The position numbers were made by a program, and so were the translations under genes. A model generated the notes under the pieces. The model had not been told where the DNA came from and searched no databases. It saw only the letters and a program-made list of their open reading frames with translations. DNA of 64,000 nt, taken from Candidatus Bathyarchaeia archaeon. GTDB taxonomy: Archaea > Thermoproteota > Bathyarchaeia > 40CM-2-53-6. The stretch is taken from positions 464,359 through 528,358 of the forward strand of contig JBEKVV010000003.1 of the NCBI GenBank assembly GCA_049513715.1. Reading direction: 5' to 3'. Every line of letters starts with the position of its first letter. Within the stretch, counting starts at the first letter, position 1. This document shows positions 50,080-63,179 of the stretch, piece by piece.

Positions 50080-51801
50080 TCAATTCCTCCGTCTTGAGCC
50101 GCGTTGTGCAATCAGCCGCAGCACCACTAGTGCCAAAAATGAGGTCAGTACCAGGAAACCGACGCCAAGCGCTCGTTCGGCAGGGGTCACTTGCACCGTG
50201 CCCTTAATCCAGGCGACGAGGAGGATTGGTGCAGTTTTGAGTGTGCTTGAAACAGCGGAGGTTGCCCCGGTTTCATCGACGCTTCGAGTGAAGACCAAGA
50301 TTGCTCCAGAGAGGAGAGAGTATTTTGTGAGGGGTATGGTGATTTTTCGGAAGATTCTGAACGGCCTAGCGCCTAACGTTTTGGCCGCGTCCTCAAGCTC
50401 GGGGGCTATGCCTTGAATTGATGCAGCCATCGCGCGAACGAAGTAGCTGTAGGTTATGGTGGTGTGGGCGAGGACGAGTACCCAGAATTCTGGGAGGGCG
50501 CCGATGTTTCGCCAGAAGAAATTCAACGAGACACCAAGCGCCAAAGATGGCACTATTATCGGTAGGTCTACGAGAGTGTCCACAATCCTCGTGAGCTTCC
50601 GGTTGAATCTATTCCGGGCGATTAGGACTGCTATCGGCAAGCCTGATACAATGTTCACGACGGTTGCCAGTAAAGCCACAACGTAGGACAAGCCCATCGC
50701 GGACCAGAAGGCGCCCCATGGGCCTACTCCTGCCACCGCTTCGCTAACCGTGCCGCTGGCAACTGCTTGCGCTGCGGGTAAGGCGATGAAGAGGCATGGC
50801 ATTAAAACGAAGACCAAGAACACGGATATGCTTACCACGTTTCTGCCAGAAGCAACGTTACTTGTGCTGAGTTTCTTCTCTACAGTCGGCCAGGCTCTCA
50901 GCGGCGACAGTTTCACTCTAGGAGCGAGAATCTTGATTGCTGCAAAAACAACGAGCGATACTGCTATGAGGACTAGGCTTGCGAGTACGACAGCCGCCGT
51001 TAAGCCTGCGCCGCGTGCGTTGCTGATGAAGACGGTTCCGTTTTCGAAGGCGCCGGCGACGACTATGGTTGCGCCCGTTTCGGAGAGCGAGCGAGCCAGT
51101 GCCAGCAAGAATGCTGCCAGGAGCCCTGGCCTTAGAATTGGGAAGGTGACTGTTCGAACTGCCGTGTGGGCTGAGGCGCCTAGAGTTCGCGCGGCAACTT
51201 CGAAGGTTTCGCGGTAGTTCAGGAATTCTCCGACCATTACTCGTACGATGACGGGGTATGAGAAGGCGAAGTGAAGCAGCATAATCAGCAACGCTCCCGG
51301 TGCCACTAGCCCGCTTCCTCCGAAGATTCCCGAGATTCCGGAGGGACTGCCCCAGAACTGTAGAATCGAGAAACCTAGGGCGACGGTGGGAATGACGAAC
51401 GGGATGTCGGCGAGGCTGTCAAGTATCGGAGTCCAACTTCCATGCTTCCTCACAATCAACCAAGCCAACGGAACACCCGCAACAATATCCAAAGCAGCGA
51501 CGGTGAGGCCGATCGTGAAAGACCACACGACCGCATTCTGCATTCGCACTGTAACTGCAGGTGTCAAGGCGAGGTTCGGAATCGTGAACAGTTGAACAAC
51601 AATACCGGCAATCGCAGGCGTAATCACAATCAAAAAGAAGAAAACCAGTGCGATGGAGTAGACGGACTTTGTTACGCCCGCTCGGCCTGAGATGTTCTCT
51701 AGTTTCTTGAGTAGTTTGTCGAGTAGGGTGGTTGAGCCTCCAGTTTGGCTTGCTGTGGCCTGCAACGGCTCAATCCCAGCCTGGCATTCGGCCAAGAGCA
51801 T
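50080..51801 (-). CDS. ABC importer permease with two fused domains (FbpB/ThiP-like)
   Basis: Two EAA loops (EVAARTLGA, EDAAKTLGA), ~12 TM. Confidence 0.88.
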   Translation of the reverse strand: MLLAECQAGIEPLQATASQTGGSTTLLDKLLKKLENISGRAGVTKSVYSIALVFFFLIVITPAIAGIVVQLFTIPNLALTPAVTVRMQNAVVWSFTIGLTVAALDIVAGVPLAWLIVRKHGSWTPILDSLADIPFVIPTVALGFSILQFWGSPSGISGIFGGSGLVAPGALLIMLLHFAFSYPVIVRVMVGEFLNYRETFEVAARTLGASAHTAVRTVTFPILRPGLLAAFLLALARSLSETGATIVVAGAFENGTVFISNARGAGLTAAVVLASLVLIAVSLVVFAAIKILAPRVKLSPLRAWPTVEKKLSTSNVASGRNVVSISVFLVFVLMPCLFIALPAAQAVASGTVSEAVAGVGPWGAFWSAMGLSYVVALLATVVNIVSGLPIAVLIARNRFNRKLTRIVDTLVDLPIIVPSLALGVSLNFFWRNIGALPEFWVLVLAHTTITYSYFVRAMAASIQGIAPELEDAAKTLGARPFRIFRKITIPLTKYSLLSGAILVFTRSVDETGATSAVSSTLKTAPILLVAWIKGTVQVTPAERALGVGFLVLTSFLALVVLRLIAQRGSRRRN

Positions 51802-51829
51802 TTAAGAAGATGATGACCTCGAACTAACA

Positions 51830-52123
51830 ATGAAAAGGGGTTCTCAGATGATTACGGCGTTCGTTATGATGAACGCGGAACGAGACCGCATCGCACAAGT
51901 ACCCGACGAATTACTCAAAATCACCGGCGTCACAGAAGTCTACTCCGTAGCAGGAGACTACGACCTAGTCGCCACAGTCCGCGTCAAACAAGCCGAAGAC
52001 CTGGCGAAGGTAGTCAGGGAACAATTCGTGAAGGTTCGTGGGATAACTAGGACGATGACGCTGATTGCTTTCAGGTGCTACAGCAACTACGACCTAGAAC
52101 ACATGTTCAGCATAGGAAACTAA
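51830..52123 (+). CDS. Lrp/AsnC ligand-binding-domain-only protein; apparent integration target
   Basis: GVTEVYSVAGDYDLVA, GITRTMTLI; no HTH. Confidence 0.88.
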   Translation: MKRGSQMITAFVMMNAERDRIAQVPDELLKITGVTEVYSVAGDYDLVATVRVKQAEDLAKVVREQFVKVRGITRTMTLIAFRCYSNYDLEHMFSIGN

Positions 52124-52149
52124 TGCTAGGCCTGGCGCACAGATAACTC

Positions 52150-52282
52150 ATGGTGCGCAAGCACAAGAAGCAACGGTTCAAATTCAGTTGCCAGCACCAC
52201 TAGACCCACACACACAAAATAACGGTTCAAATTACGGTGCTCGCACCACTAGACCCACACACACATTTTTGACGGTGCTCGC
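52150..52282 (+). repeat. Island repeat family: two tandem copies (49-bp period) plus a partial third
   Basis: GGTTCAAATT-N4-TGCNNGCACCA-CTAGACCCACACACACA with cores at 52175 and 52224; ACGGTGCTCGC again at 52272. Confidence 0.9.
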
Positions 52283-52541
52283 TTCGCTCGCAGACTCGTT
52301 TTCCATGTAGCATGGGTTGGAATGGGATGCGTTATTTTGTGGAGGTAGTAAATGGTGAATCTTGAGAGCCTTTTGCGTGTTCAGTTTTGGTTTAGTGGAA
52401 AGGCTAGTGTAGTGTATTTCTCTGCCACGAAATACCCCATTATGGGTGGGGTGTTTCTACCGACGCGTGTTGAAAACTCCTGTTATGCTTTGAGTTCGAC
52501 CGCCATCTTGCCGCTATCCCATCGCATCACACAAAACCCGT

Positions 52542-54689
52542 TTAGGGTCGGAGTGTCGCGCCGCTTGACGATGTGACCAGGACCCACATGGCTTGCCCCG
52601 GTTGAAGTACGTAGGATGAGTTTGCCCTAATCCATGTGCCACTAGAAGTATCGTACAACCAAACGTTACCCACATCATAGCTGCCAGTAATGCTGGATAA
52701 GTAGACGCCAACCGTTTTGGGTTCGGTAGCGTTCGGCTGCGACTTAAACCCAACCAAATTCCAACCCGCAACCAGCGAGTAGGATGGTGGTGTCGAGCCG
52801 AATGGGATTACGGAACCATTAACGTACAACGTACCCGCAGCCCTCATGAAGACACAGTACCCGAACCCGTCCACCATCGTCGTCAAAGTGCTCGGTTTGC
52901 CGGGAATGTAGAACTTCCAGCTCAGCGGAGTTCCAGTATAACCCCACACCACACCAAGGTTACCTGATGCAGCCAAAGACCTCATCTTGTTCACAGCGGA
53001 CGAGTCCACTGGAACCACGGGCAACGAGACCAGATTCCAACCCGCAACCAGCGGCACGCTATAGGCGTAGGCGATACCCCCAACATCCATGATCACCCCG
53101 TTCATCACCTCATCCCGATCATCCGAAGGCACCCCATCAGTCAGGTTTAGGAGGGCTACTGTGCGGTTCTGGCTGACAGTGAAGTGGCTGACGGGAAGCT
53201 GACGCCAGACACCATTATGAAAAGTCCAGTACATCAACCCAGGCCCGTTAGGCAGCGGGGCAGGCAACGTCACAGTCACGTTCACAGACGCCCCCGCCGT
53301 CAAATTGCCGACCGTCATGTTGAACAAGCCAAATGGAAACGTCAAGCCAGCAGGCGAGAGAGGAGATGCACTCGCAGGACTCAACGCCGTCAAACCCACA
53401 AAGCTACCATTGTTCACCGTGAAGACCACGCTACCCATACCAGTCGCAGACACTAGATCGCCCTGAGGCTTACTCCGCTTCTCAACCCTCCACTCTTCCT
53501 TGCTACCTGCCGCGTTCGAGTCGTATCCGACCACGTAGACGCCTGAAGCATCAACAGCAACACCAGAAGCGTAGTCGCTGCTGGTGCTGATCTGCTCCGA
53601 CACGGCCCAGATGATTACCCCGGTTGCTAGGCTCCGCTTCTCAACCCTCCACTCATCGTGGTTGCCAGCAGTGTTCTCATCACCTCCGCCCACGTAAACG
53701 CCTGAACCATCAACAGCAACACCATGAGACGCATCGGACCCGCTGCTGCTGATGTGCTCTGACAGTGCCCAGATGATTACTCCGGTTGTTAGGCTCCGCT
53801 TCTCAACCCTCCACTCATAGTGGTTGCCAGCGGTGCTCGAGTCGCCTCCGACCACGTAAACGCCTGAAGCGTCAACAGCAACACCATGAGCGGTGTCATA
53901 ACTGGTGCTGATATCCTCCGACACAGCCCACATGATTACTCCGGTTGTTAGGCTCCGCTTCTCAACCCTCCACTCATAGTTGCCGGGAACTTGGTCAAAG
54001 CCGACCACGTATACGCCTGAACCATCAACAGCAACACCATAAGCGACGTCCCAACTGGTACTGATATCCTCCGACACAGCCCACATGATTACTCCGGTTG
54101 TTAGGCTCCGCTTCTCAACCCTCCACTCAGAGTTGGTGCCAGCAGTGTTCGAGTCGTATCCGACGACGTATACGCCTGAACCATCAACAGCAACACCATA
54201 AGCGTAGGAGCTGCCGGTGCTGATGTCCTCCGACACAGCCCACATGATTACTCCGGTTGTTAGGCTCCGCTTCTCAACCCTCCACTCAAACGTGTTCCCT
54301 GCACCGTTATGATCGAATCCGACTGCGTATAGGCCTGAACCATCAACAGCAACACCATAAGCCCAGTCGTTGTAGCTGCTGATATGCTCAGACACGGCCC
54401 ACATGATCGCGCCAGTGGTCAGGCTTCTCTTCTCAACCCTCCACTCATATGACCCGCTCACAGTATTGTTGTCAGCTCCGACAGCGTAGAGTCCCGAGGC
54501 GTCAACAGCAACACCATTAGCCCACTCGCTGCTGGTGCTGATATGTTCCGACACAGCCCACACTTTGCTTCCTGGTGGGGGATACGGTGTAACGGCCTTG
54601 ACGGGTTGTGGTGGATTCAAGGCGGGGAACATTATTGCTATCAGGGATAGGAGAAGTACGGAACGGATTACGGTACCCCGTCTAATCAA
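52542..54689 (-). CDS. Secreted/surface protein: 7-bladed beta-propeller, choice-of-anchor-U-like domain, two AGWNLV repeats
   Basis: Signal peptide; 7x GVAVD.SG.Y.VG...EWRVEKRS; LTDG...D.D...NGVI.D.GG; LVAGWNLV twice. Confidence 0.8.
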   Translation of the reverse strand: MIRRGTVIRSVLLLSLIAIMFPALNPPQPVKAVTPYPPPGSKVWAVSEHISTSSEWANGVAVDASGLYAVGADNNTVSGSYEWRVEKRSLTTGAIMWAVSEHISSYNDWAYGVAVDGSGLYAVGFDHNGAGNTFEWRVEKRSLTTGVIMWAVSEDISTGSSYAYGVAVDGSGVYVVGYDSNTAGTNSEWRVEKRSLTTGVIMWAVSEDISTSWDVAYGVAVDGSGVYVVGFDQVPGNYEWRVEKRSLTTGVIMWAVSEDISTSYDTAHGVAVDASGVYVVGGDSSTAGNHYEWRVEKRSLTTGVIIWALSEHISSSGSDASHGVAVDGSGVYVGGGDENTAGNHDEWRVEKRSLATGVIIWAVSEQISTSSDYASGVAVDASGVYVVGYDSNAAGSKEEWRVEKRSKPQGDLVSATGMGSVVFTVNNGSFVGLTALSPASASPLSPAGLTFPFGLFNMTVGNLTAGASVNVTVTLPAPLPNGPGLMYWTFHNGVWRQLPVSHFTVSQNRTVALLNLTDGVPSDDRDEVMNGVIMDVGGIAYAYSVPLVAGWNLVSLPVVPVDSSAVNKMRSLAASGNLGVVWGYTGTPLSWKFYIPGKPSTLTTMVDGFGYCVFMRAAGTLYVNGSVIPFGSTPPSYSLVAGWNLVGFKSQPNATEPKTVGVYLSSITGSYDVGNVWLYDTSSGTWIRANSSYVLQPGQAMWVLVTSSSGATLRP
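53470..54565 (-). repeat. Seven intragenic tandem repeats of 153-162 bp
   Basis: EWRVEKRS-coding block at 53473, 53632, 53794, 53953, 54106, 54265, 54424. Confidence 0.95.
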
Positions 54690-55196
54690 ACTTCACACCA
54701 GTTAGACGATTAACAGTCGATTACGTGGCCATGAGTAATTATCATTTTCCATGTTGATTCACAATGACTACGAAAAGTCAATACTGCACATACTCTACAG
54801 TGCATTGAATAACACAGAACAGCAATGCACTATACTCTTCCCAGTCGAGGTCCTCGAAGTTGAATCGTAGTCGCGTGTCCCATGGGCTCTTGCCCAAGAA
54901 ACCATCGCGCGTTTGCGGAAAAGAAACGCGCAGGCTAGGTACCGCGAAACTTCCTGGCAAAAAACAAACATCGCGAGGTTAGCGAGAAAACAAGAAAACA
55001 AACATCGCAACCAACGCGCAATTTTCGCAACGCTGATTGCAACAAGTCACACTTGGTTTAGGTTTTTGTGACATGCAACCACGAAAAGAAACACGGTTCT
55101 TCGCTATTGCACGGTTCACTCTGGTCACATCGAAACTGCAGCTGCAGCTTTTTTGCTATTGCTCTAATATCCTCTTTCATGTATGGGTTGAGTGAG

Positions 55197-55268
55197 GGTG
55201 CACATACACAAACCCGCCAGAATTGACGGTTCAATTGTGGATGCTCGCACCATTGGACCCACACACAA
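55197..55268 (+). repeat. Island repeat family copy
   Basis: GGTTCAATTGTGGATGCTCGCACCA-TTGGACCCACACACA, core 55228-55252. Confidence 0.85.
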
Positions 55269-55346
55269 GAAATCGAAATCAACGTCCTAGAATGAATGAC
55301 GGATCTAGACTAGAAAAATAGGTGGAGGGCCCTATGGGTCCTGCGT

Positions 55347-55802
55347 TTAGGTTACGGTTACAGTTGTATTTGCAACTGTAGTCGTGGCAGTTATGGTGGT
55401 ATTGGCTACTTCGGTGGTTAGAGTCTCTGTGATTGTTGTGTTCGTCCCTGGTTGAGTGATTGTTTCGGTGATTGTTGAGTTCGTCCCCGGTTCAGTGATC
55501 GTTTGTGTGATGTTTTGGGTCACAGTTACAGGTTGGTTTTGCGTTACGGTGGTGGTTTCGGTTACTGTGGCTGTTTTTTTGTTGTGGTTGTTCTCGTTAT
55601 TGTTGTCATCGTTGTTATTGCCGTTGTCGTCATTTGTTTCAGTTTGATTGTGACTATCAGTGTGAGTGTGACTCTTGCTGCTTGAGCTGAGTGTTGAGTG
55701 TTTGTCGGCGAGTGTCACGTTGGGCTGGAGCGCAAGAACTGAGACTGCTAGGAGCAGTAGCACGATTGCCACCTTTCGTGTTTGAATGGTGTGGGTTTTC
55801 AT
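55347..55802 (-). CDS. Secreted Thr/Asn-rich low-complexity protein (possibly truncated surface glycoprotein)
   Basis: Signal-like VAIVLLLLAVSVLA; N/D tract; TVTETTT/TITETIT repeats; NxT sequons; no C-terminal anchor. Confidence 0.7.
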   Translation of the reverse strand: MKTHTIQTRKVAIVLLLLAVSVLALQPNVTLADKHSTLSSSSKSHTHTDSHNQTETNDDNGNNNDDNNNENNHNKKTATVTETTTVTQNQPVTVTQNITQTITEPGTNSTITETITQPGTNTTITETLTTEVANTTITATTTVANTTVTVT

Positions 55803-56014
55803 TTTCTGATCCACTTTTTCCTGATTGCCTTTTGACATGGAGATAGGTATATCAGTGTTCGCTCTATGGCACATACACGTTTCAATAGAAAAAGCGGGGA
55901 GAGCCCCTGGGAGCCATGGAACACATGGACTCCAAATTACAAATAGATCTACGCGACCGCCTCCGCGTAGCGGACTCAGGGTGGACACACCTCATCGAGG
56001 GTAGATTCCACCCA

Positions 56015-56158
56015 CGCGTCAAAGAAGCCGAAGACCTAGCCAAAGTGGTCACAGACCAATTCGTGAAAGTCGAAGGGATTACTAGAACCATGACGCTAAT
56101 CGCGTTCAGATGTTACAGCAACTACGATCTAGAACACATGTTCAGCATAGGAAATTGA
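56015..56158 (+). pseudogene. Displaced 3' half of the Lrp/AsnC gene
   Basis: RVKEAEDLAKVVTDQFVKVEGITRTMTLIAFRCYSNYDLEHMFSIGN*; sequence upstream of 56015 is unrelated to the gene. Confidence 0.85.
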
Positions 56159-56253
56159 CCCCGGTTCTAACCCGAATGGGCGCAAACCCCTCCAAAACAA
56201 CACTATTCGCCCCTGTAGCGTTAACGAGTCCATTCCGTGGGTTAGACCTTGGT

Positions 56254-56289
56254 GGGTGACATCACCCGAGGGTGAGGTGACATCACCTC
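56254..56289. promoter_or_regulatory. Two palindromic GGTGA-CA-TCACC boxes 21 bp apart (operator or recombinase site candidate)
   Basis: GGTGACATCACC at 56255 and 56276. Confidence 0.5.
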
Positions 56290-56349
56290 CCTCCCTTGTT
56301 GCGAACTGCATCAAACTTCTGCAAAAAATCAGTCGAAGTGCCCGCAAGG

Positions 56350-56706
56350 TTAGAACACTCGGGTAACCGGCTTGAATGCGGGGACCGGCCGTGTCCTCGT
56401 AGCGAACATGGCCAATGCGATGCCCCAGGCACGGTCATCATGCGTCCCATCTGGGTGGCTGAATTGAATTTGACCAGCCTTGGTGAGCTGGAATCGTTCG
56501 ATGTTCAACTCGTTGGCTAACTCAAGTTGATAGGGGATCAGGAATCGTTTCTGCTGCATCATCATTTTGAGGTAGTTCATCACGTCCTGTTTGGCTGGTG
56601 CGGAGAGGACGATGCCTTCTGCGTTAGGGAGCGATTTCTTCGCTTCTTCTACGACACTCTCTCCAACGCCCGTTTGGTCGATTAGAATTCTATGAACTGT
56701 TTGCAA
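56350..56706 (-). pseudogene. Terminase large subunit C-terminal (RNase H-like nuclease) fragment
   Basis: ILIDQTGVGESVVE, K..VM..LK..MQ, HDDRAWGIALA; ATPase domain absent. Confidence 0.75.
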
Positions 56707-56774
56707 CTTCTTCGTGAGAACTCGAACTCAGCCTTCAGAAGCGTGGCTATGAAGGTTGGGATGCTTCACTGCTA

Positions 56775-58286
56775 GTGCTCCCTGTTAATTGGCGTTGCCA
56801 TAGAAATCCTATGAAGAATGATGATCGATGCGTTTTCCATTCAGACAAGAAAGATGCGGCCACTTTCGATACGGCGCTTCGAAGAGAGATCAGTAACAGT
56901 AAAATCAAATCGTTTGACTTCACAGGGGCGATCTTCCCGGAGCCGGGTGTCGATCTGACCTGCATATCGCAAAGCAAACCGATTTTGTTTACTGGAGCCG
57001 ATTTCCGAGGACAGACTTTCTTCAATGGAACAACATTCGGCGAGGTTGATTTCCGGAAAGCGACGTTCGACAATGAGGTCACATTCGAGAACGCCGTATT
57101 CAAACGCCGCTCCAAGTTTGAGGGAGCAAAGTTCACCGACGCTTCTTTCAAAGGAGCCACTTTCGAGGACGTAGCTGATTTTCAATTCGCCAAATTTGAC
57201 GTCGGAGATTTCTTTGACGCAACATTCAGCAAGAATGTGAGTTTCCAATGGTCAGAATTGCACGATGTTTCATTTGTTTCGACCAACTTCAAGGCTCAAG
57301 TTGATTTTGCCTCATGCACAATGAGTGGATGTGACTTTGACGACGCGACGATTGCTTGGCAATCATTCTTCGACAGAGCAAAGTTGAGCGATGTTTCTTT
57401 CGAGGCTACCACATTTGTTAGACCCGTGTCGTTCGATGAGTGTATTTTCTCTGGAACTTCGAAATTTACCAACACTGTCTTTCTATCACAGGCAAGTTTC
57501 CGCGACGTTCATGGGAACGCGCGAGACAGCGTTTTGTTCGCCGGTAATCCCGCCGACTTGACGGCAGAATTACTCGAAGACAGTAACGGAGAACCTCCTC
57601 TAGATGACGAATTGAGAGCAGAGCTTGACAACCAAAAGAAAATCGCTTCAATTGGCCATATCAGTCTGAGACTAGTGACCCTCAGTGGAGCAGACATCAG
57701 CACCATGCAGTTCCTCAATGTTAACTGGAATAGCAAGTCATACGGAGTTTGGCCCTTCTCTAGGACAAGAAGCGCAATATTCGATGAGATCCAACAAGAA
57801 GGAAGCCGCACATCAGCGGATTATGAATCGGTCGCGGCGACCTACAGACAGCTTCGGGGGAATTATGAAGCTGAACTAAGGTATCATGAAGCTGGCGACT
57901 TCTACGTCGGCGAAATGGAGATGCGACGGCTCCAGCTCTCTTGTCAGTCCAGATTTGGCCTTTGGCGCTGGGTACGTCGCAATATTCTCTCGATATTGGG
58001 TTGGTACAGGAATATCAGCTTCTACGGCGAGAGTTACCTGCTCTCAGGTTCATGGATCATTGGAATGATTTTGCTCTTTGCTATGGTGCATGGAGTCTCT
58101 ATGTGGAATTCGGAAGCGATCAAATGTAACTCCACTATCAACTTCCGCGATTTACTGAGCGAAAGCCTTTTTGCCTTTTTCCAACTGAAAAGCGACACCA
58201 ACTTGGACCTGGTGGAGCGTCTAATTGGGGCCTTCCTAAGCGGAATGCTATTCATTCCCCTGAAGCGTCATTTCGAGAGACGCTAG
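56775..58286 (+). CDS. Pentapeptide-repeat protein with C-terminal membrane (ion-channel-like) region
   Basis: N-terminal C...CVFH; many [AV]xFxx repeats; A..FY..EME.RR, SFYGES, two TM segments. Confidence 0.8.
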   Translation: MLPVNWRCHRNPMKNDDRCVFHSDKKDAATFDTALRREISNSKIKSFDFTGAIFPEPGVDLTCISQSKPILFTGADFRGQTFFNGTTFGEVDFRKATFDNEVTFENAVFKRRSKFEGAKFTDASFKGATFEDVADFQFAKFDVGDFFDATFSKNVSFQWSELHDVSFVSTNFKAQVDFASCTMSGCDFDDATIAWQSFFDRAKLSDVSFEATTFVRPVSFDECIFSGTSKFTNTVFLSQASFRDVHGNARDSVLFAGNPADLTAELLEDSNGEPPLDDELRAELDNQKKIASIGHISLRLVTLSGADISTMQFLNVNWNSKSYGVWPFSRTRSAIFDEIQQEGSRTSADYESVAATYRQLRGNYEAELRYHEAGDFYVGEMEMRRLQLSCQSRFGLWRWVRRNILSILGWYRNISFYGESYLLSGSWIIGMILLFAMVHGVSMWNSEAIKCNSTINFRDLLSESLFAFFQLKSDTNLDLVERLIGAFLSGMLFIPLKRHFERR

Positions 58287-58517
58287 TTGGACCTCGCCAT
58301 ATGTGCACGCATGCTATCATACCATTTGCGATACTCACCACACAAAAACTCTACGATTGTTGGAGAGGTGAAGCTATCTAACAGAAGCTCCAACCAAATG
58401 CGAGCGCGACATCCCTACCAACCGCGGAACGTGTTCGGCCCTCACTTCGATGTAGACTGACCTAGGATTGCACCCCAGAGAAAAAGACCGGCTACGGCCT
58501 ATCCCTAGGAAAGGCAT

Positions 58518-59333
58518 TCAACAACACTGAAACAGGTAGTCAGGTAGCGCATCAATCGCCAGCATAGGATACCCCAACGTCTCGCGCGCAGCCCTTGCTA
58601 GACTCTCGTAGAGAGAGGGCACCAACAGGTCCCCATATCGATACACGATGCCTCCACGCTTAATCACGGCGTTGTACGCAATATCCTCATCCACGTATCG
58701 AGCAATAATAAAAGGCACCAATCCCAATTGTCGGGCAACTCTAACCTTCATGTTAACGTCATCTCGTGTGTCCCATTCATATCGAATCCAGTTTTTCACA
58801 TCCACGCCGTACAAAAGCCCGTCACGCTCAAAAACAAAATCGACGTTCGGAGGCTCTTTCCCTGACACTCCGTGGACCTTTCGCCCCGAGAACTCAGACA
58901 CATCTCTGCCGTGAAATTTGAACCCTAGAGAGAGAAACGCATGCTCGAAAAGATCCTCAGCATGCGCACCCGCTGGCGAAACCCCCGTAAGAACATTGGC
59001 AACTCCTTCCGAAACGTCCTTTTTCTTCTTGATCAGATCTTTTACAGAATCATAGTTAGTCCCACTCAACACATAGAACGAAACCACGTCCGTACCAACT
59101 ATCCGCCTCCTTCCAGGATATCCAACTTTCTCAACAACCTCATCATTAATCAAAACTCCAAGGGCGCGCCCAACGACCCATGGGAAAAAAGTCTTCTCCA
59201 GTCGTACTTTCAGCTCTCTGTCCGTCGCTACTGAAACTTCGCCAAGAATTTCCGAGATTCTTGGCATCGCCTCAGCAACTCTTGGATCCATCTCCTCATC
59301 TTCGCTGGGCTCCCACCCTTCCATCGAACCCAA
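58518..59333 (-). CDS. PD-(D/E)XK restriction-endonuclease-like protein with N-terminal winged-helix-like region
   Basis: G.HAE.LF, NVDFVF, GVDVKN. Confidence 0.6.
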   Translation of the reverse strand: MGSMEGWEPSEDEEMDPRVAEAMPRISEILGEVSVATDRELKVRLEKTFFPWVVGRALGVLINDEVVEKVGYPGRRRIVGTDVVSFYVLSGTNYDSVKDLIKKKKDVSEGVANVLTGVSPAGAHAEDLFEHAFLSLGFKFHGRDVSEFSGRKVHGVSGKEPPNVDFVFERDGLLYGVDVKNWIRYEWDTRDDVNMKVRVARQLGLVPFIIARYVDEDIAYNAVIKRGGIVYRYGDLLVPSLYESLARAARETLGYPMLAIDALPDYLFQCC

Positions 59334-59593
59334 ACCTCGCGAAAGAACCTATCCCGAAAAGCATGCCCTACCCATATCTGCGTTTGGTTAAAACTAGTGC
59401 GCAGCGCTAATCGTTAGTCTTTCGACGACGCTAACAACTGAGACAAAGCAACACCATATCACAGAATGAATATTCAGCATCTACACCCACGTGCTGCCCC
59501 GTGTTTATCAATAGTGCACTAAACCGCAAACACGAAACCACTGAATCACAAACAACAAAACACAACCCGTTCATTCGTTCGTTTTCGGGGGGC

Positions 59594-59626
59594 GGGTCTA
59601 ATGGTGCGAGCAGTCCAATTTGAACT
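59594..59626 (-). repeat. Island repeat family copy (inverted)
   Basis: Reverse complement reads AGTTCAAATTGGACTGCTCGCACCA-TTAGACCC. Confidence 0.85.
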
Positions 59627-59875
59627 CGACATAATCGGGTGCCGAGCTAAGGGTTCAGTGTAAGATACGTATCATAGAAGAACGAGAACATCTTGTCTGA
59701 AGAGAAAGGCTCCCCTCCCGACAATCATCCCGGCTTCGCGGAGCCAAGCACAACAGCTACTGGAGGTTCGAATCCGACCCACCACAAGAACGACGGAACC
59801 CCCCGTAGTAGGGGGGCGGTGCCAGTCGGCGAACATCCGCTCCAGAAGATCTACCACTCACCGAAAAACTTGTGG

Positions 59876-60010
59876 CTAGTTGTGTTTGGACAGGACTGTT
59901 CTTAGAGTGTTTAGAGAAATGTTGGCGCCGCTTACAATCACCACTACTTTCTCCCCCACTTTGAGCTTGGCCTTCTCAAGTAATGCTGCGATGGCGGCTG
60001 TTGCCAGGAT
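59876..60010 (-). pseudogene. C-terminal fragment of a PLP-dependent threonine/serine dehydratase
   Basis: ATAAIAALL...GEKVVVIVSGANI. Confidence 0.65.
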
Positions 60011-60017
60011 ACGAATC

Positions 60018-60318
60018 TCAAGCAGCGAGCTCGCCGTTGAGTTTAGCGCGGACTTTCGCATAGATGCGAAATCATTCTTTGGCCTTGACATTCTTTCGCA
60101 GGTAATGGAGCGTACTCCTGCTGATTCCTAGTTTTCCAGCTTCCGACTGAGTTATACCAAGAATCTTCTCTCTAACCACTCGATCATCAGTCGTCTCAAA
60201 AATAAGGTAAGGGAGCAGAGAAATCAGGGCTACGAGAGCTACCACTCAGGTATATCGCCAGTTCGCTCGTTTTTTCCTGAATTACCGTATGCCATTTCAG
60301 AATGCGACCCTTGTAGCT
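60018..60318 (-). pseudogene. cas1: 3' remnant of a solo Cas1 (casposase-like) gene with C-terminal HTH extension; one frameshift, one internal stop
   Basis: SYKGRILKWHTVIQEKTSELAIYLSGSSRSPDFSAPLP / IFETTDDRVVREKILGITQSEAGKLGISRSTLHYLRKNVKAKE*FRIYAKVRAKLNGELAA*. Confidence 0.75.
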
Positions 60319-60408
60319 ATGCAGCACTTTCACTCGTCTCACTGACTATTCAGTCTCTTCGCAAGAACACTCTCACGCTTACTAGATATGAAAGGTTGAG
60401 GAGACTTA

Positions 60409-60735
60409 TTGTTGGCCGTCGAATCAATCAAGGCCATCCCTATTCACCAGGTACGCGCATGGGCGAACCAGCTTGCTGGTGAAGCTCGTGACGCGGATTG
60501 GCTTCGTTATTCGTATGTTGTTCCTGATGTGCTGAACGATGTCGCTCAAGAACTGGAGGGGGGGTACCGCGGATTGATAGGGCTCGTGGGGCGACAAGGA
60601 GTAGGCAAGAGCAGCGCATTGATGGCGCTTATGAAAGGAATCCCATTCTCTCTGCGCCCACAAAACGCGAAGATTCTTTTCAAGTGGCGAAGGGAAAAGG
60701 AACTCTTCGCGACTCTTCTGAACAACACTTGCTAG
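60409..60735 (+). pseudogene. Truncated P-loop NTPase
   Basis: LIGLVGRQGVGKS Walker A, then stop before any Walker B. Confidence 0.6.
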
Positions 60736-60749
60736 TATCTTTCGGAAAC

Positions 60750-61364
60750 TCACAGGGCTTTCTTCAGGGCCCGTATGTTGAATGTTGTATTGGCGCAACC
60801 ATTCCTGATTAAAGGCACATTTTGACCTGGCAGCCCCGTCTTCTCTAACAGCCCTTCAGCTAGCTTGATCTCCTCGCCGCAGGCGACTCCCACAAGCGCC
60901 TCATAACGGCCTTTTTGCAGAATCTGATGGATACATGACCCACCCGGCAGAACATAAACATCGTACCCTTTCTCCTCCCCAGCCAGTGTCGCTTGGTTTA
61001 CCAAGCAGTCGGGTGAACAGTGAGAGCAGCCGTATGATGGAATGTTCGAATCGAAGACGGCTTTACACCGATTGTCCATATACTTCCTTGAGCAGTGAGG
61101 AAGCAGTAGCACTCGCCTGGAAGTTCTTACGAATCTTTCCCGGTTGTTGAAATTCTTAGTCTGGATATCTATCAAGTCCTCGAGGAGCATCAGAGCTTGA
61201 GCAAAATCCAACCCTGTGATCTCCTGAACTCTAAATCGTTCAAGAAGACGTAGAGTTGCCTCGCCAATTCTTCTGTGCAGCTTTCTCTTTTGGGCAGCCA
61301 GCGCAATTCCTGTGAAGAACGATTGAGATAGCCGTGTCAGGTCGAACTTGAATTGGTAAGGCAT
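60750..61364 (-). CDS. DUF116 family protein
   Basis: LLLPHC.R....C, C..C...C, LPGGS, VGVAC..E, VPL...GC. Confidence 0.85.
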   Translation of the reverse strand: MPYQFKFDLTRLSQSFFTGIALAAQKRKLHRRIGEATLRLLERFRVQEITGLDFAQALMLLEDLIDIQTKNFNNRERFVRTSRRVLLLPHCSRKYMDNRCKAVFDSNIPSYGCSHCSPDCLVNQATLAGEEKGYDVYVLPGGSCIHQILQKGRYEALVGVACGEEIKLAEGLLEKTGLPGQNVPLIRNGCANTTFNIRALKKAL

Positions 61365-61595
61365 GAGTCTCGTATTACCGCCAGGAGCAATAAGCTCAAA
61401 GGACGAGTCTTGGTTTTGGTACTTAATCAGAAGTGTGCGTTGTCCATTCTCTGGCGGACGTGTGTGTGGTACAGCTGGCGCGCACGCACACAAAAATAGG
61501 GACCCATGTGGACTGAGACACCGTGCCATCGAACAACTGTCAACTTCACCTTATTAGCGTCCGGTCACCACAGCGACATTGAATAGCTGATTTCT

Positions 61596-61832
61596 GTGGC
61601 TGAGAATTCGTCTTCACGCAATACACCCAAGTACCCTTTCTTTGATTTTATGCGAGGAATTCAACCGGTTAGGGAACACAAGGGGTGGCGCATCTTCCGA
61701 TTCAAGCAGGCCTATCATGCAGCTGAAGGATGGATCGACTTGTATGTTGGCTACAAGCCCGAACGCGTCCTAATTGATGGACTCGGCCTCAAGTCTGTAG
61801 TCTCAGACATTGACGAAGCTGAACAAGCATAG
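61596..61832 (+). CDS. Hypothetical protein
   Basis: 78-aa ORF, no motif. Confidence 0.4.
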   Translation: MAENSSSRNTPKYPFFDFMRGIQPVREHKGWRIFRFKQAYHAAEGWIDLYVGYKPERVLIDGLGLKSVVSDIDEAEQA

Positions 61833-62148
61833 TGCTCTCTTGGTCCCGTTATTCCGTGAGGGAAGTCGGGGCGCTATTGTATGACAGATCGGCTTAGCGA
61901 GGAACAGGAACGGGCTGCTGCGAAAAAGATGGACGAATTCTACGAAGTGTTGGGGTCAGCCGCCTGGACAGATCGGAAGGTTACTGGTTGAAATGCAGAG
62001 AGTGCGGAAAGGAATGGAAGCATACTGTGGAAATGACTCCACTCACCCATTGGGTACGCCCAAACAAGTGCAACTTGAGGGAACAACGAAAAACATTTAG
62101 GGCATAAACAAACGCAAGCGGTTCGTAATGTGACTGCTTGTGTTTTCG

Positions 62149-62286
62149 TGGTGCGCACAAAATAACGCCTGAAGTGACGGTTCAAATCGTTTTCCAACAG
62201 GCGATCTGGTCAGCAGTTTCCTGTGTGTGTGGTCTGGTGGTGCGTGCATCAGAATTTGAACTTTAGCTTTACTGTTTGCGCACCAT
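62149..62286. repeat. Island repeat family: partial forward copy (62149-62187) facing a full inverted copy (62221-62286)
   Basis: Reverse complement of 62221-62286 aligns with 52150-52216; 62149-62187 aligns with 55197-55236. Confidence 0.85.
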
Positions 62287-62322
62287 CGGTCAGGTTCGAT
62301 TTGCGAATTCTCGCTTAGGCGC

Positions 62323-62368
62323 TTATATGTACCGGTAAATTGGGGTCAAAATCCCCTGCCCCGCACCA
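62323..62368 (+). repeat. 40-bp direct repeat copy 1, ending in a tRNA 3'-end-like fragment
   Basis: TTATATGTACCGGTAAATT-GGGG-TCAAAAT-CCCC-TGCCCCGCACCA. Confidence 0.8.
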
Positions 62369-62465
62369 TTGAAAACGCTTTGAGGGTTGACTTTGATTTC
62401 CGTCTCTAACAAACTAAATAGTTGCGGGAACATTATAACGAATTTCTTGAGGAGGCGCTAAGGCT

Positions 62466-62708
62466 TTGGTGGTTGTCGTCGGCAAGAGAACTCCAATTTG
62501 GCCGATATTTGCAGTACTCATCATCGTGGTTCTGGTTGTCGTCGCAATTTTACTCTTCATACTCACGGGAGGAAGAGGAACACTGCTTGTCGTTGCGATT
62601 CCAGGATTTCCCGTAGAATCGATCATTCTGGGCTTAGGGCTCGGAGTCCTCTTGGTACTGCTGAGGAGGAAACCCGCCAGCAACAACAAAAAATCGGGCA
62701 CAGCCTAG
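62466..62708 (+). CDS. Tiny membrane protein ending in an IPGFP-type (PGF-CTERM-like) sorting signal
   Basis: TM helix then AIPGFPVESIILGLGLGVLLVLLRRK; GGAGG upstream. Confidence 0.6.
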   Translation: MVVVVGKRTPIWPIFAVLIIVVLVVVAILLFILTGGRGTLLVVAIPGFPVESIILGLGLGVLLVLLRRKPASNNKKSGTA

Positions 62709-62822
62709 CTAGGTTCACTCCGTGAACAGAGGCTTCCACCGATTCCACCTAACCACATTATCAACGAGACTGTTCGCTAAAGCAAAAAGTGCGTTCGACC
62801 AGTTCTCGGAAAGTGAGTTGAA

Positions 62823-63080
62823 TTGCTTGAAGGTGGAACTGTGAAGATCGTGGCCCTCGGAGACAGCCTGACGGTCGGAGAAACCGGATTCTCTGATTCT
62901 GAAGAATCCGCTTCGTACCCGAAGTATCTTGAGACCCTTGCCGAAGAACATCTGCGCAGTCTCCAATCGGACGTGAAGGTCAACGTTCTGAATAGAGGAA
63001 TTAACGGTGATCTGACCTCGGGTATGCTCGAAAGGTTCGATAATTGGTTGAGGGCACTTCTGGACCAACATACAAAGTAG
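62823..63080 (+). pseudogene. N-terminal fragment of an SGNH/GDSL hydrolase
   Basis: KIVALGDSLT, NRGINGD...ML.RF, then stop; GxND and DxxH blocks missing. Confidence 0.75.
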
Positions 63081-63139: not shown

Positions 63140-63179
63140 TTATATGTACCGGTACATTGGGGCTGAAATTCCCTGCCCC
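63140..63179 (+). repeat. 40-bp direct repeat copy 2
   Basis: 35/40 identical to 62323-62362; contains perfect palindrome ATGTACCGGTACAT. Confidence 0.8.

Follow-up and report, generated by a model that had tools for sequence, protein, structure and literature searches.

A broken 3' end of a probable family-2-type casposase gene in a bathyarchaeal genome island with tRNA-like junction repeats

On the minus strand at positions 60018-60345 of the bathyarchaeal DNA analysed here (the window, 64,000 nt, corresponding to G000:C3:464359-528358, whose right edge is the end of its contig), two short reading frames with a 1-base offset near 60200 together resemble the end of a Cas1 protein. They lie in an island spanning ~52166 to ~62273 that also contains repeats resembling tRNA 3' ends and including GCACCA. 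Which gene left this remnant, and does it belong with the repeats? The CRISPR adaptation machinery has been proposed to descend from casposons. To our knowledge, few casposon families are known, and all the classic ones carry their own polymerase. We propose with good confidence that the stretch is the non-functional 3' quarter of a family-2-type casposase gene from a mobile-element family abundant in the genus.

Translation of the minus strand gave two frames. Frame A (60199-60345) reads ...HSYKGRILKWHTVIQEKTSELAIYLSGSSRSPDFSAPLPYF and terminates at a stop codon at 60196-60198. Frame B (60021-60245) reads ...ETTDDRVVREKILGITQSEAGKLGISRSTLHYLRKNVKAKE, TGA, FRIYAKVRAKLNGELAA, and terminates at 60018-60020. 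These are exactly the peptides quoted in the first-pass annotation of the window, together with the frameshift and the internal TGA that it had reported. By tblastn and structure alignment, the stretch (hereafter the relic) corresponds to the final ~95 residues of a Cas1 of ~405 aa bearing a helix-turn-helix (HTH) at its C-terminus. In the tblastn and 6OPM alignments it begins at about residue 309, 3' of all catalytic motifs (Glu, His, Asp/Glu), and as only residues ~309-403 are present, the whole catalytic part is missing. Contigs of the DNA run X20, which is not flagged as source, reproduce the window over 59957-60806 letter for letter and ungapped; both the frameshift and the TGA thus belong to the population and do not result from an assembly slip. 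The relic itself is dead and without function. Its parts, the surrounding junctions and the related copies and elements are listed in Table 1.

Table 1. Features of the window, casposase relics of the genome and casposase-bearing elements of relatives
Feature	Location	Strand	Length	Description
Window
Two tandem leader + core + CA-run units	52166..52265	+		GCACCACTAGACCC at 52194-52207 and 52243-52256; left edge of the island
Junction	55219..55267	+		leader, core GCACCATTGGACCC (55247-55260), CA-run
Junction	59568..59637	-		leader 59608-59637; core GCACCATTAGACCC 59594-59607; C-run end pointing away from the relic
Possible degenerate junction facing the relic	59757..59845	+		T-loop-like GGTTCGAAT...CCACCA, C-run, 6 nt, G-run; identified by eye
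Dehydratase 3'-end copy	59840..60004	-		last ~42 codons + ~36 nt downstream; 93-94% identity to G000:C7:29727-29891
Original stop codon, homologous C-terminus	60018..60020	-		alignment extends to aa 403 of 409
Piece 2: linker, helix-turn-helix and C-terminal tail	60027..60191	-		6OPM 357-412
In-frame TGA within piece 2	60072..60074	-		last ~17 residues cut off
Frameshift zone, 1-base offset	60196..60207	-		colinear alignment changes frame between paralog residues 115 and 120
Piece 1: last helices of the Cas1 C-terminal domain	60205..60312	-		aa ~309-346 of ~405-aa homologs; 6OPM 319-354
Degenerate junction	61460..61492	-		GT-run, core GCGCCAGCTGTACC (61468-61481), CA-run
Junction	62204..62273	-		tRNA-like leader, core GCACCACCAGACCA (62230-62243), CA-run end
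Casposase relics of the genome
Relic	C1:893791-894261			residues 246-403
Relic	C1:619026-619280			residues 288-363
Relic	C1:46608-46784			residues 256-333
Relic, window copy	60018..60345	-		residues 309-403
Relic	C5:10949-11176			residues 331-406
Elements of relatives
Element L023			8.6 kb	intact casposase; leader present; inverted ends weak
Element L024	7904-15034		7.1 kb	intact casposase; ~70-80-bp inverted ends
Element L025	6292-17238		10.9 kb	intact casposase; 15-bp inverted ends
Element L040	1455-6600		5.1 kb	truncated casposase; ~13-15-bp inverted ends

Searched against the PDB with the TGA read as X, frame B matched a single structure, 6OPM, with an E-value of 1.2e-6 over chain residues 357-412. 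Frame A alone gave a non-significant match (E 0.66) ranked under unrelated lipocalins. Though deposited as 'CRISPR-associated endonuclease Cas1', 6OPM is identified as the M. mazei casposase of PMC6977970, and the C-terminal HTH is described in PMC4046053 as a feature of all family-2 casposon Cas1 proteins and of no other Cas1. The best solved relative of the relic being the M. mazei casposase, the annotation's recognition of a Cas1 end followed by a family-2 HTH is borne out. Both pieces align colinearly with an open 174-aa paralog of the same genome (L004 ORF, G000:C1:893749-894273), piece 1 with 50% identity to residues 80-115 (pairwise E 4e-12) and piece 2 with 47% identity to residues 120-173; this paralog matches 6OPM with an E-value of 4.4e-19 over residues 256-399. 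With a full-length homolog as tblastn query, the two relic pieces were recovered joined, at E 2.3e-17, over aa 309-346 and 352-403 of 409.

Profile libraries, used alone, did not pick out the fragment. A Pfam scan of the relic pieces returned 0 families, with weak Xre-like or Fis HTH matches and no Cas1, an NCBIfam scan returned no Cas1 and weak generic HTH matches at most, and a six-frame search of the genome with the PF01867 profile found nothing at the relic position. The absence of a PF01867 match on the fragment is explained by the ~35 residues of the domain that remain. The profile comparison suggested in the annotation thus led, for the HTH piece, to the casposase 6OPM in the PDB, with no Cas1 recognised in the fragment by Pfam or NCBIfam. 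A longer-protein search yielded 450 homologs at E<=1e-3; the 120 matches listed among them are 307-429 aa long, all with PF01867, and the organism-named ones are Bathyarchaeia. Full-length homologs match PF01867 at E ~1e-50.

An intact homolog from a relative, P0002 (404 aa), matches 6OPM with an E-value of 4.3e-69 over residues 36-403, HTH included, and the motifs VEG..YW, GFxH and YDLQEPFR are kept in this alignment, their presumed assignment to catalytic residues following PMC4046053 in part. The best CRISPR Cas1 structure reached 4.5e-21 against P0002, over residues 38-257 only; CRISPR Cas1 structures align at best to residues 38-317, ~48 orders of magnitude worse than 6OPM, the preference for the casposase being a ranking of solved structures. 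These comparisons support the assignment of the relic as the putative end of the Cas1 fold and C-terminal HTH of a family-2-type casposase.

Could the relic instead be what is left of a cas1 of the ordinary CRISPR-associated kind, its CRISPR-cas locus having decayed? The fold family is that of Cas1, and the source annotation of the full-length homologs reads 'CRISPR-associated endonuclease Cas1'. However, the C-terminal HTH aligns to the casposase only, and all nine intact homologs examined in relatives (9/9 loci) lie outside CRISPR-cas operons, no cas2, cas4 or other cas family being detected among the 125 ORFs around them. The window has no CRISPR-like array either: none was found among its repeat families, in agreement with the annotation. 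We consider this origin most improbable.

Other copies of the family were sought in this genome (99.4% complete, 8.8% contamination). No intact Cas1 was detected in it, no PF01867 match passing the cut-off (best E 0.15, at an unrelated place). Searching by tblastn with three full-length homologs, five casposase relics were found, none with the N-terminal half. The 174-aa and 96-aa copies are uninterrupted. No orthologous relic was found in 22 congeners, and within 2.15 kb around the relic a DUF116 gene alone is common to them. Found in this genome only, the copy in the window is a dead fossil. Since all five copies are dead, the junction repeats of this genome would be fossils as well, or movable only by an enzyme coming from outside.

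In the related genomes, a match to P0002 was found in 28 of 61, this genome included. The 75-row table of these matches was classed by hand count, giving 14 full-length genes, 13 internal pieces, 1 frameshifted near-full gene and 2 genes cut by contig ends; 32 loci are without the 5' part yet reach residue 386 or later, against 1-2 with an N-terminal piece only. Another 6-7 rows, with <=36% identity, are probably ordinary Cas1.

Such a preponderance of 3' ends in the hand count raises the question of a retained function, all the more as most 3' pieces in relatives are uninterrupted open frames, like the 174-aa and 96-aa copies here. The relic, or its 57-codon open part at 60072-60245, could then be a working small HTH protein, for instance a casposition inhibitor occupying ends or targets. 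In the window, however, the frameshift falls just upstream of the HTH, the TGA removes the conserved tail, the start codon would be a GTG within out-of-frame sequence, and the 22 congeners have no ortholog; moreover the C-terminal part of the protein is the best conserved and therefore the easiest to detect. We regard a working protein as quite unlikely and keep the relic as a broken gene. Deletions anchored at an element end were also considered as a source of the 5' truncations. A junction lies <=100 nt from the break in 2 of 22 truncated loci only, so that this is not a general explanation.

The neighbourhoods of the intact copies are variable. In several loci (L019, L022, L026) a winged-HTH gene lies directly against the casposase start, and in L025 an HNH gene adjoins the casposase; other neighbours comprise AIPR, a TIR-domain protein, a DNA methylase with ParB, DUF4365 and HerA-like proteins, and L019 contains a phage-integrase fragment. 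Neither an integrase nor a PolB was found inside the three delimited elements with an intact casposase. The sole PolB among the 125 ORFs, in L018, sits amid housekeeping genes (arginase, RsmB, F420-ligase), and among 17 PolB matches in five genomes it alone is within 20 kb of a casposase match. PolB genes of similar length in other genomes, with no casposase nearby, are presumably its orthologs. As the annotation had stated, the window has no PolB, none of the PolB matches of the genome falling there. DNA homology between casposase loci is restricted to the casposase ORF (63-82% identity), and an attempt to delimit elements by homology between copies failed for this reason; as the homology ends at gene borders, no recent transposition is seen.

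The repeats of the window have the format GTTCAAAT...TGCyC-GCACCA-nnnn-ACCC, then a CA-run or C-run. Using our own regular expressions, we called 110 such junctions in the whole genome and nine relatives' loci, 75 of them in this genome. The 14-bp core is preceded by a tRNA-like leader, a GT-run or a G-run; what follows it is unique sequence or else a CA-run or C-run. Such an arrangement would be expected of elements whose inverted ends are CACACA.../...GTGTGT or C-rich/G-rich, with junctions of three types: leader-duplication-element, element-duplication-element and element-duplication-flank. A junction is located 1.6-4.7 kb downstream of the casposase stop in all nine intact loci; for the truncated loci, several being short contigs, the count with a junction <=3.4 kb downstream is 12 of 22.

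The possibility that the leaders are tRNA genes was discarded, since neither ARAGORN nor Rfam, the latter run over 51500-63000 with two thresholds (gathering score, E<=5), detected tRNAs or other RNA families at the leaders or in the window. Similarly, tRNA models gave no match at 59757..59845. A conserved T-psi-C hairpin in the pseudo-leaders was not retained either, a T-stem of >=4 bp being present in 12 of 56 compared with 10.8 +/- 2.4 among shuffled partners. Beyond the window, the genome has a tRNA gene that contains an intron and encodes its CCA (G000:C3:86163-86290, minus strand; Val(CAC) according to ARAGORN). It ends ...GCACCA, and the rest of the core and a CA-type element end come directly after it; C5:182538 has a pseudo-copy of its 3' end bearing that core.

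Four casposase-bearing elements could be delimited in relatives, each with a tRNA-like leader, an identical direct 14-bp repeat starting with GCACCA, and inverted ends. In L025 a second element comes next, and then a third identical core; the intact casposase is in the leader-proximal unit. L020 has a terminal inverted repeat of 18 bp. Among pairs of cores 100-15,000 bp apart, 6 of 81 in the same orientation and 1 of 58 in opposite orientation are identical, for a background of 2.1%; a few core variants being frequent, it is improbable only to a moderate degree that neighbouring cores are identical. Three of the six identical direct pairs enclose an intact casposase (L023, L024, L025). In 6/6 of these direct pairs, and in L040 too, the inner ends are of matching type (CA with GT, C with G). 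The combination of leader, identical direct 14-mers and inverted ends points to the GCACCA tRNA-like repeats as casposon insertion junctions. Consistently, 4 of the 5 relics of this genome are <=2.5 kb from a junction, a zone covering 7.35% of the genome (p 1.5e-4, 20,000 permutations). With this co-location and the four bounded elements of relatives, the link that the annotation had suspected between the relic and the repeats is supported. Inverted rather than direct cores flank a 2.8-kb segment of L018 and G000:C5:6288-12900, which encloses the C5 relic, and a simple insertion model does not explain these two cases.

These inverted pairs bring in another reading of the repeats, as att sites of tyrosine-integrase-type elements or of another capture system, with the relic merely residing in the same island, repeats and relics both being expected to cluster in variable regions. 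The phage-integrase fragment of L019 would agree with it, and so would the DNA beside the relic. Starting 13 nt after the casposase stop and on the same strand is a 143-165 nt copy of the 3' end of a threonine/serine dehydratase gene (59840-60004), matching the C-termini of NCBIfam threonine dehydratases at E 1e-5; such a 165-nt duplicate of a gene 3' end is typical of integrase att duplication. The full PALP (threonine/serine dehydratase) gene is intact on contig C7, none is present near the nine intact casposase loci of relatives, and a 9-kb contig matches up to 60004 only. The copy may be att-like, or host DNA captured by the element. Against att sites stand the four casposase-bearing elements with their leader, direct repeat and matched inverted ends, and the absence of an integrase inside the three delimited elements with an intact casposase; moreover, 14 bp, a CGCA-type start, an overlap with the tRNA 3' end and a repeat shared in tandem are the published format of family-2 casposons. 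An att-site origin of the repeats thus appears unlikely, and we retain their interpretation as casposon junctions.

How much of a casposon does the island hold? The annotation had inferred a decayed casposon or casposon-derived element, of which the casposase relic and the casposon-type junctions stand. Its borders could not be defined: neither matched ends nor 14-bp duplications bracketing the relic were found in the window, and the nearest clear downstream junction (59594-59637) points away from it. An element-encoded PolB, by which strict casposons are recognised, is found neither in the window nor in the three delimited elements, and because the intact relatives are also without PolB, the strict definition of a self-synthesizing casposon does not apply. 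Judging from their sequences, the elements with intact copies would nevertheless qualify as casposons by their inverted ends, fixed short duplication and tRNA-end targeting. The survey of intact homologs proposed in the annotation thus gave inverted ends and 14-bp repeats outside CRISPR-cas operons and no element-borne PolB. Neither of the outcomes that it had named as contradicting its reading, best matches other than Cas1 C-termini or homologs sitting in CRISPR-cas operons and never near the repeat, occurred.

Several observations concern the junctions themselves. CA-type ends often have another leader and core within 4-25 nt, giving tandem units 47-66 nt apart, which occur in the window (52207-52222, 52256-52265) and elsewhere in this genome (C1:619941/619991, C2:8840/8890, C11:8536/8587, C1:573246/573293). 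Cores of the tandem pair are identical in the window and not in the four other pairs compared. In a second end family (L024, L025, L040 and window 59568-59593), C-runs or (CCG)n at one end are paired with G-runs or (CGG)n at the opposite end; it uses the same 14-bp core and leaders as the CA/GT family, and mixed junctions exist (G-run, core, CA-run). Finally, a conserved motif of the type TTTACCGGTACAyATAA is found after real tRNA 3' ends and before several pseudo-leaders (for example those of G000:C5:167007 and L024:15048), with sites of this type at 62323-62362 and 63140-63179 in the window. It may be a promoter or terminator-like signal.

Other genes of the island were also inspected. The junction at 61460..61492, 1.1 kb upstream of the relic, lies immediately 5' of the DUF116 gene (60729-61441, minus strand), which is 92-97% identical in at least 6 congeners with nothing in common in the flanks on either side. 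In G004, a leader-core-CA junction is found 48 nt from the DUF116 3' end; in the window, the degenerate junction is on its 5' side. In its behaviour the gene resembles a mobile cassette. RNA contigs, from three libraries, match only 60759-61335 within it, with 95-99% likeness; none covers the relic, although contigs are no proof of absent expression. A 108-aa ORF at 60409-60735 (plus strand) has a Walker-A-like GxxGxGKS motif and weak P-loop matches; it has no relatives in the genome or in the casposase loci compared and is probably a gene fragment. Antisense to it runs a 124-aa ORF, which over its first ~30 residues extends the conserved DUF116 region. Further away, a 118-aa ORF (56353-56706, minus strand) has a Terminase_6C RNaseH-like nuclease domain (E 8e-8), a viral gene fragment in the island, and a 715-aa ORF (52545-54689, minus strand) is built on six ~159-nt tandem repeats (53473-54540) that are 68-82% identical, with sub-threshold Pfam matches.

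A mechanism can be proposed from the intact relatives and the published biochemistry of family 2. The casposase would bind the inverted ends of the element (CACACA... or C-rich) and join them to a target in which a leader resembling a tRNA 3' end (GTTCAAAT...TGCyC) precedes GCACCA. Integration would duplicate about 14 bp, and reuse of one site would stack elements with the 14-bp repeat alone between them. The window relic would formerly have belonged to such an element. A bolder and rather doubtful extension is that polymerase-less casposons form a casposase-driven gene-cassette system, with leader-repeat-cassette-repeat-cassette arrays such as that of L025, in which pseudo-leaders at CA-type ends seed targets and tail-only genes act as insertion inhibitors. 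Each insertion seeding new targets in this way would account for the presence of pseudo-tRNA tails by the dozen in each genome, and such a system, if true, would represent a present-day counterpart of the casposon-to-CRISPR transition that has been proposed.

The relics and the intact copies of sister genomes point to a large bathyarchaeal branch that would have kept the family-2 integrase and tRNA-end targeting and lost the polymerase, and that piles up cassettes of variable, often defence-like content next to a leader, with short duplicated repeats between them. In the present genome, the relic provides a candidate enzyme for the cassette-border repeats, and its interest lies in that link only. 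The enzyme being now extinct here, the cassette borders are historical.

Comparison with known systems places these elements closest to family 2 (MetMaz, 6OPM; AciBoo-C1). They share with it the Cas1 fold with the family-specific C-terminal HTH, the catalytic motifs, conserved in the intact bathyarchaeal relatives, and, beside some copies, HNH and winged-HTH genes. Casposon targets are described as overlapping the last 4-7 nt of tRNA genes (PMC4046053), and the A. boonei casposase as using the T-psi-C segment as leader (PMC9939771); here the target overlaps the 3' end of a tRNA-like sequence and ~14 bp appear duplicated. In M. mazei, according to PMC4779613, the duplications are 14 bp long and invariably start with CGCA, a single duplication is shared by tandem casposons, and both orientations occur. 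Likewise, a C precedes GCACCA here, giving CGCA, and tandem elements have one repeat between them and occur in both orientations. Unlike family 2, the bathyarchaeal elements are without PolB (3/3 of those delimited with an intact casposase, and none linked in 5 genomes), most of their targets are pseudo-tRNA tails, dozens per genome, and not tRNA genes, they have two end families (CA-run and C-run), and their cargo, often defence-like (AIPR, TIR domain, methylase with ParB), is variable. The window copy differs further in being the broken last quarter of the gene.

We found no published report of casposons in Bathyarchaeia in our literature searches, which covered casposase papers by title and abstract. 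In the literature so covered, PolB-less casposases are proposed once before, for the HTH-less 'family 5' of hot-spring metagenomes (PMC9755687); those described here bear the HTH and come from Bathyarchaeia. PMC9755687 presents 'family 5' as mostly without PolB nearby and as proposed non-self-replicating transposons, its Cas1 homologs lying outside CRISPR loci, keeping the catalytic residues and branching near subtype I-A Cas1. The bathyarchaeal family resembles it in having Cas1 homologs outside CRISPR loci, mostly PolB-less and with catalytic residues kept, but its proteins possess the HTH and come nearest to the M. mazei casposase, a separation made by description.

Like Tn7 at attTn7 and tyrosine-integrase elements targeting tRNA genes, these elements would build islands of live and dead copies by repeated insertion at a tRNA-type site. 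The enzyme class is different, and short duplications at inverted ends are found here in place of long att identity, the 165-nt dehydratase 3' copy being the one feature that recalls tyrosine-integrase elements. With CRISPR-associated Cas1, finally, the family shares the fold, the chemistry that would follow from it, and the logic of a leader, a duplicated repeat and inserted DNA; it differs in having no Cas2, no array and an extra HTH, and in its inserts, which are of kilobase size with inverted ends instead of ~30-bp spacers.
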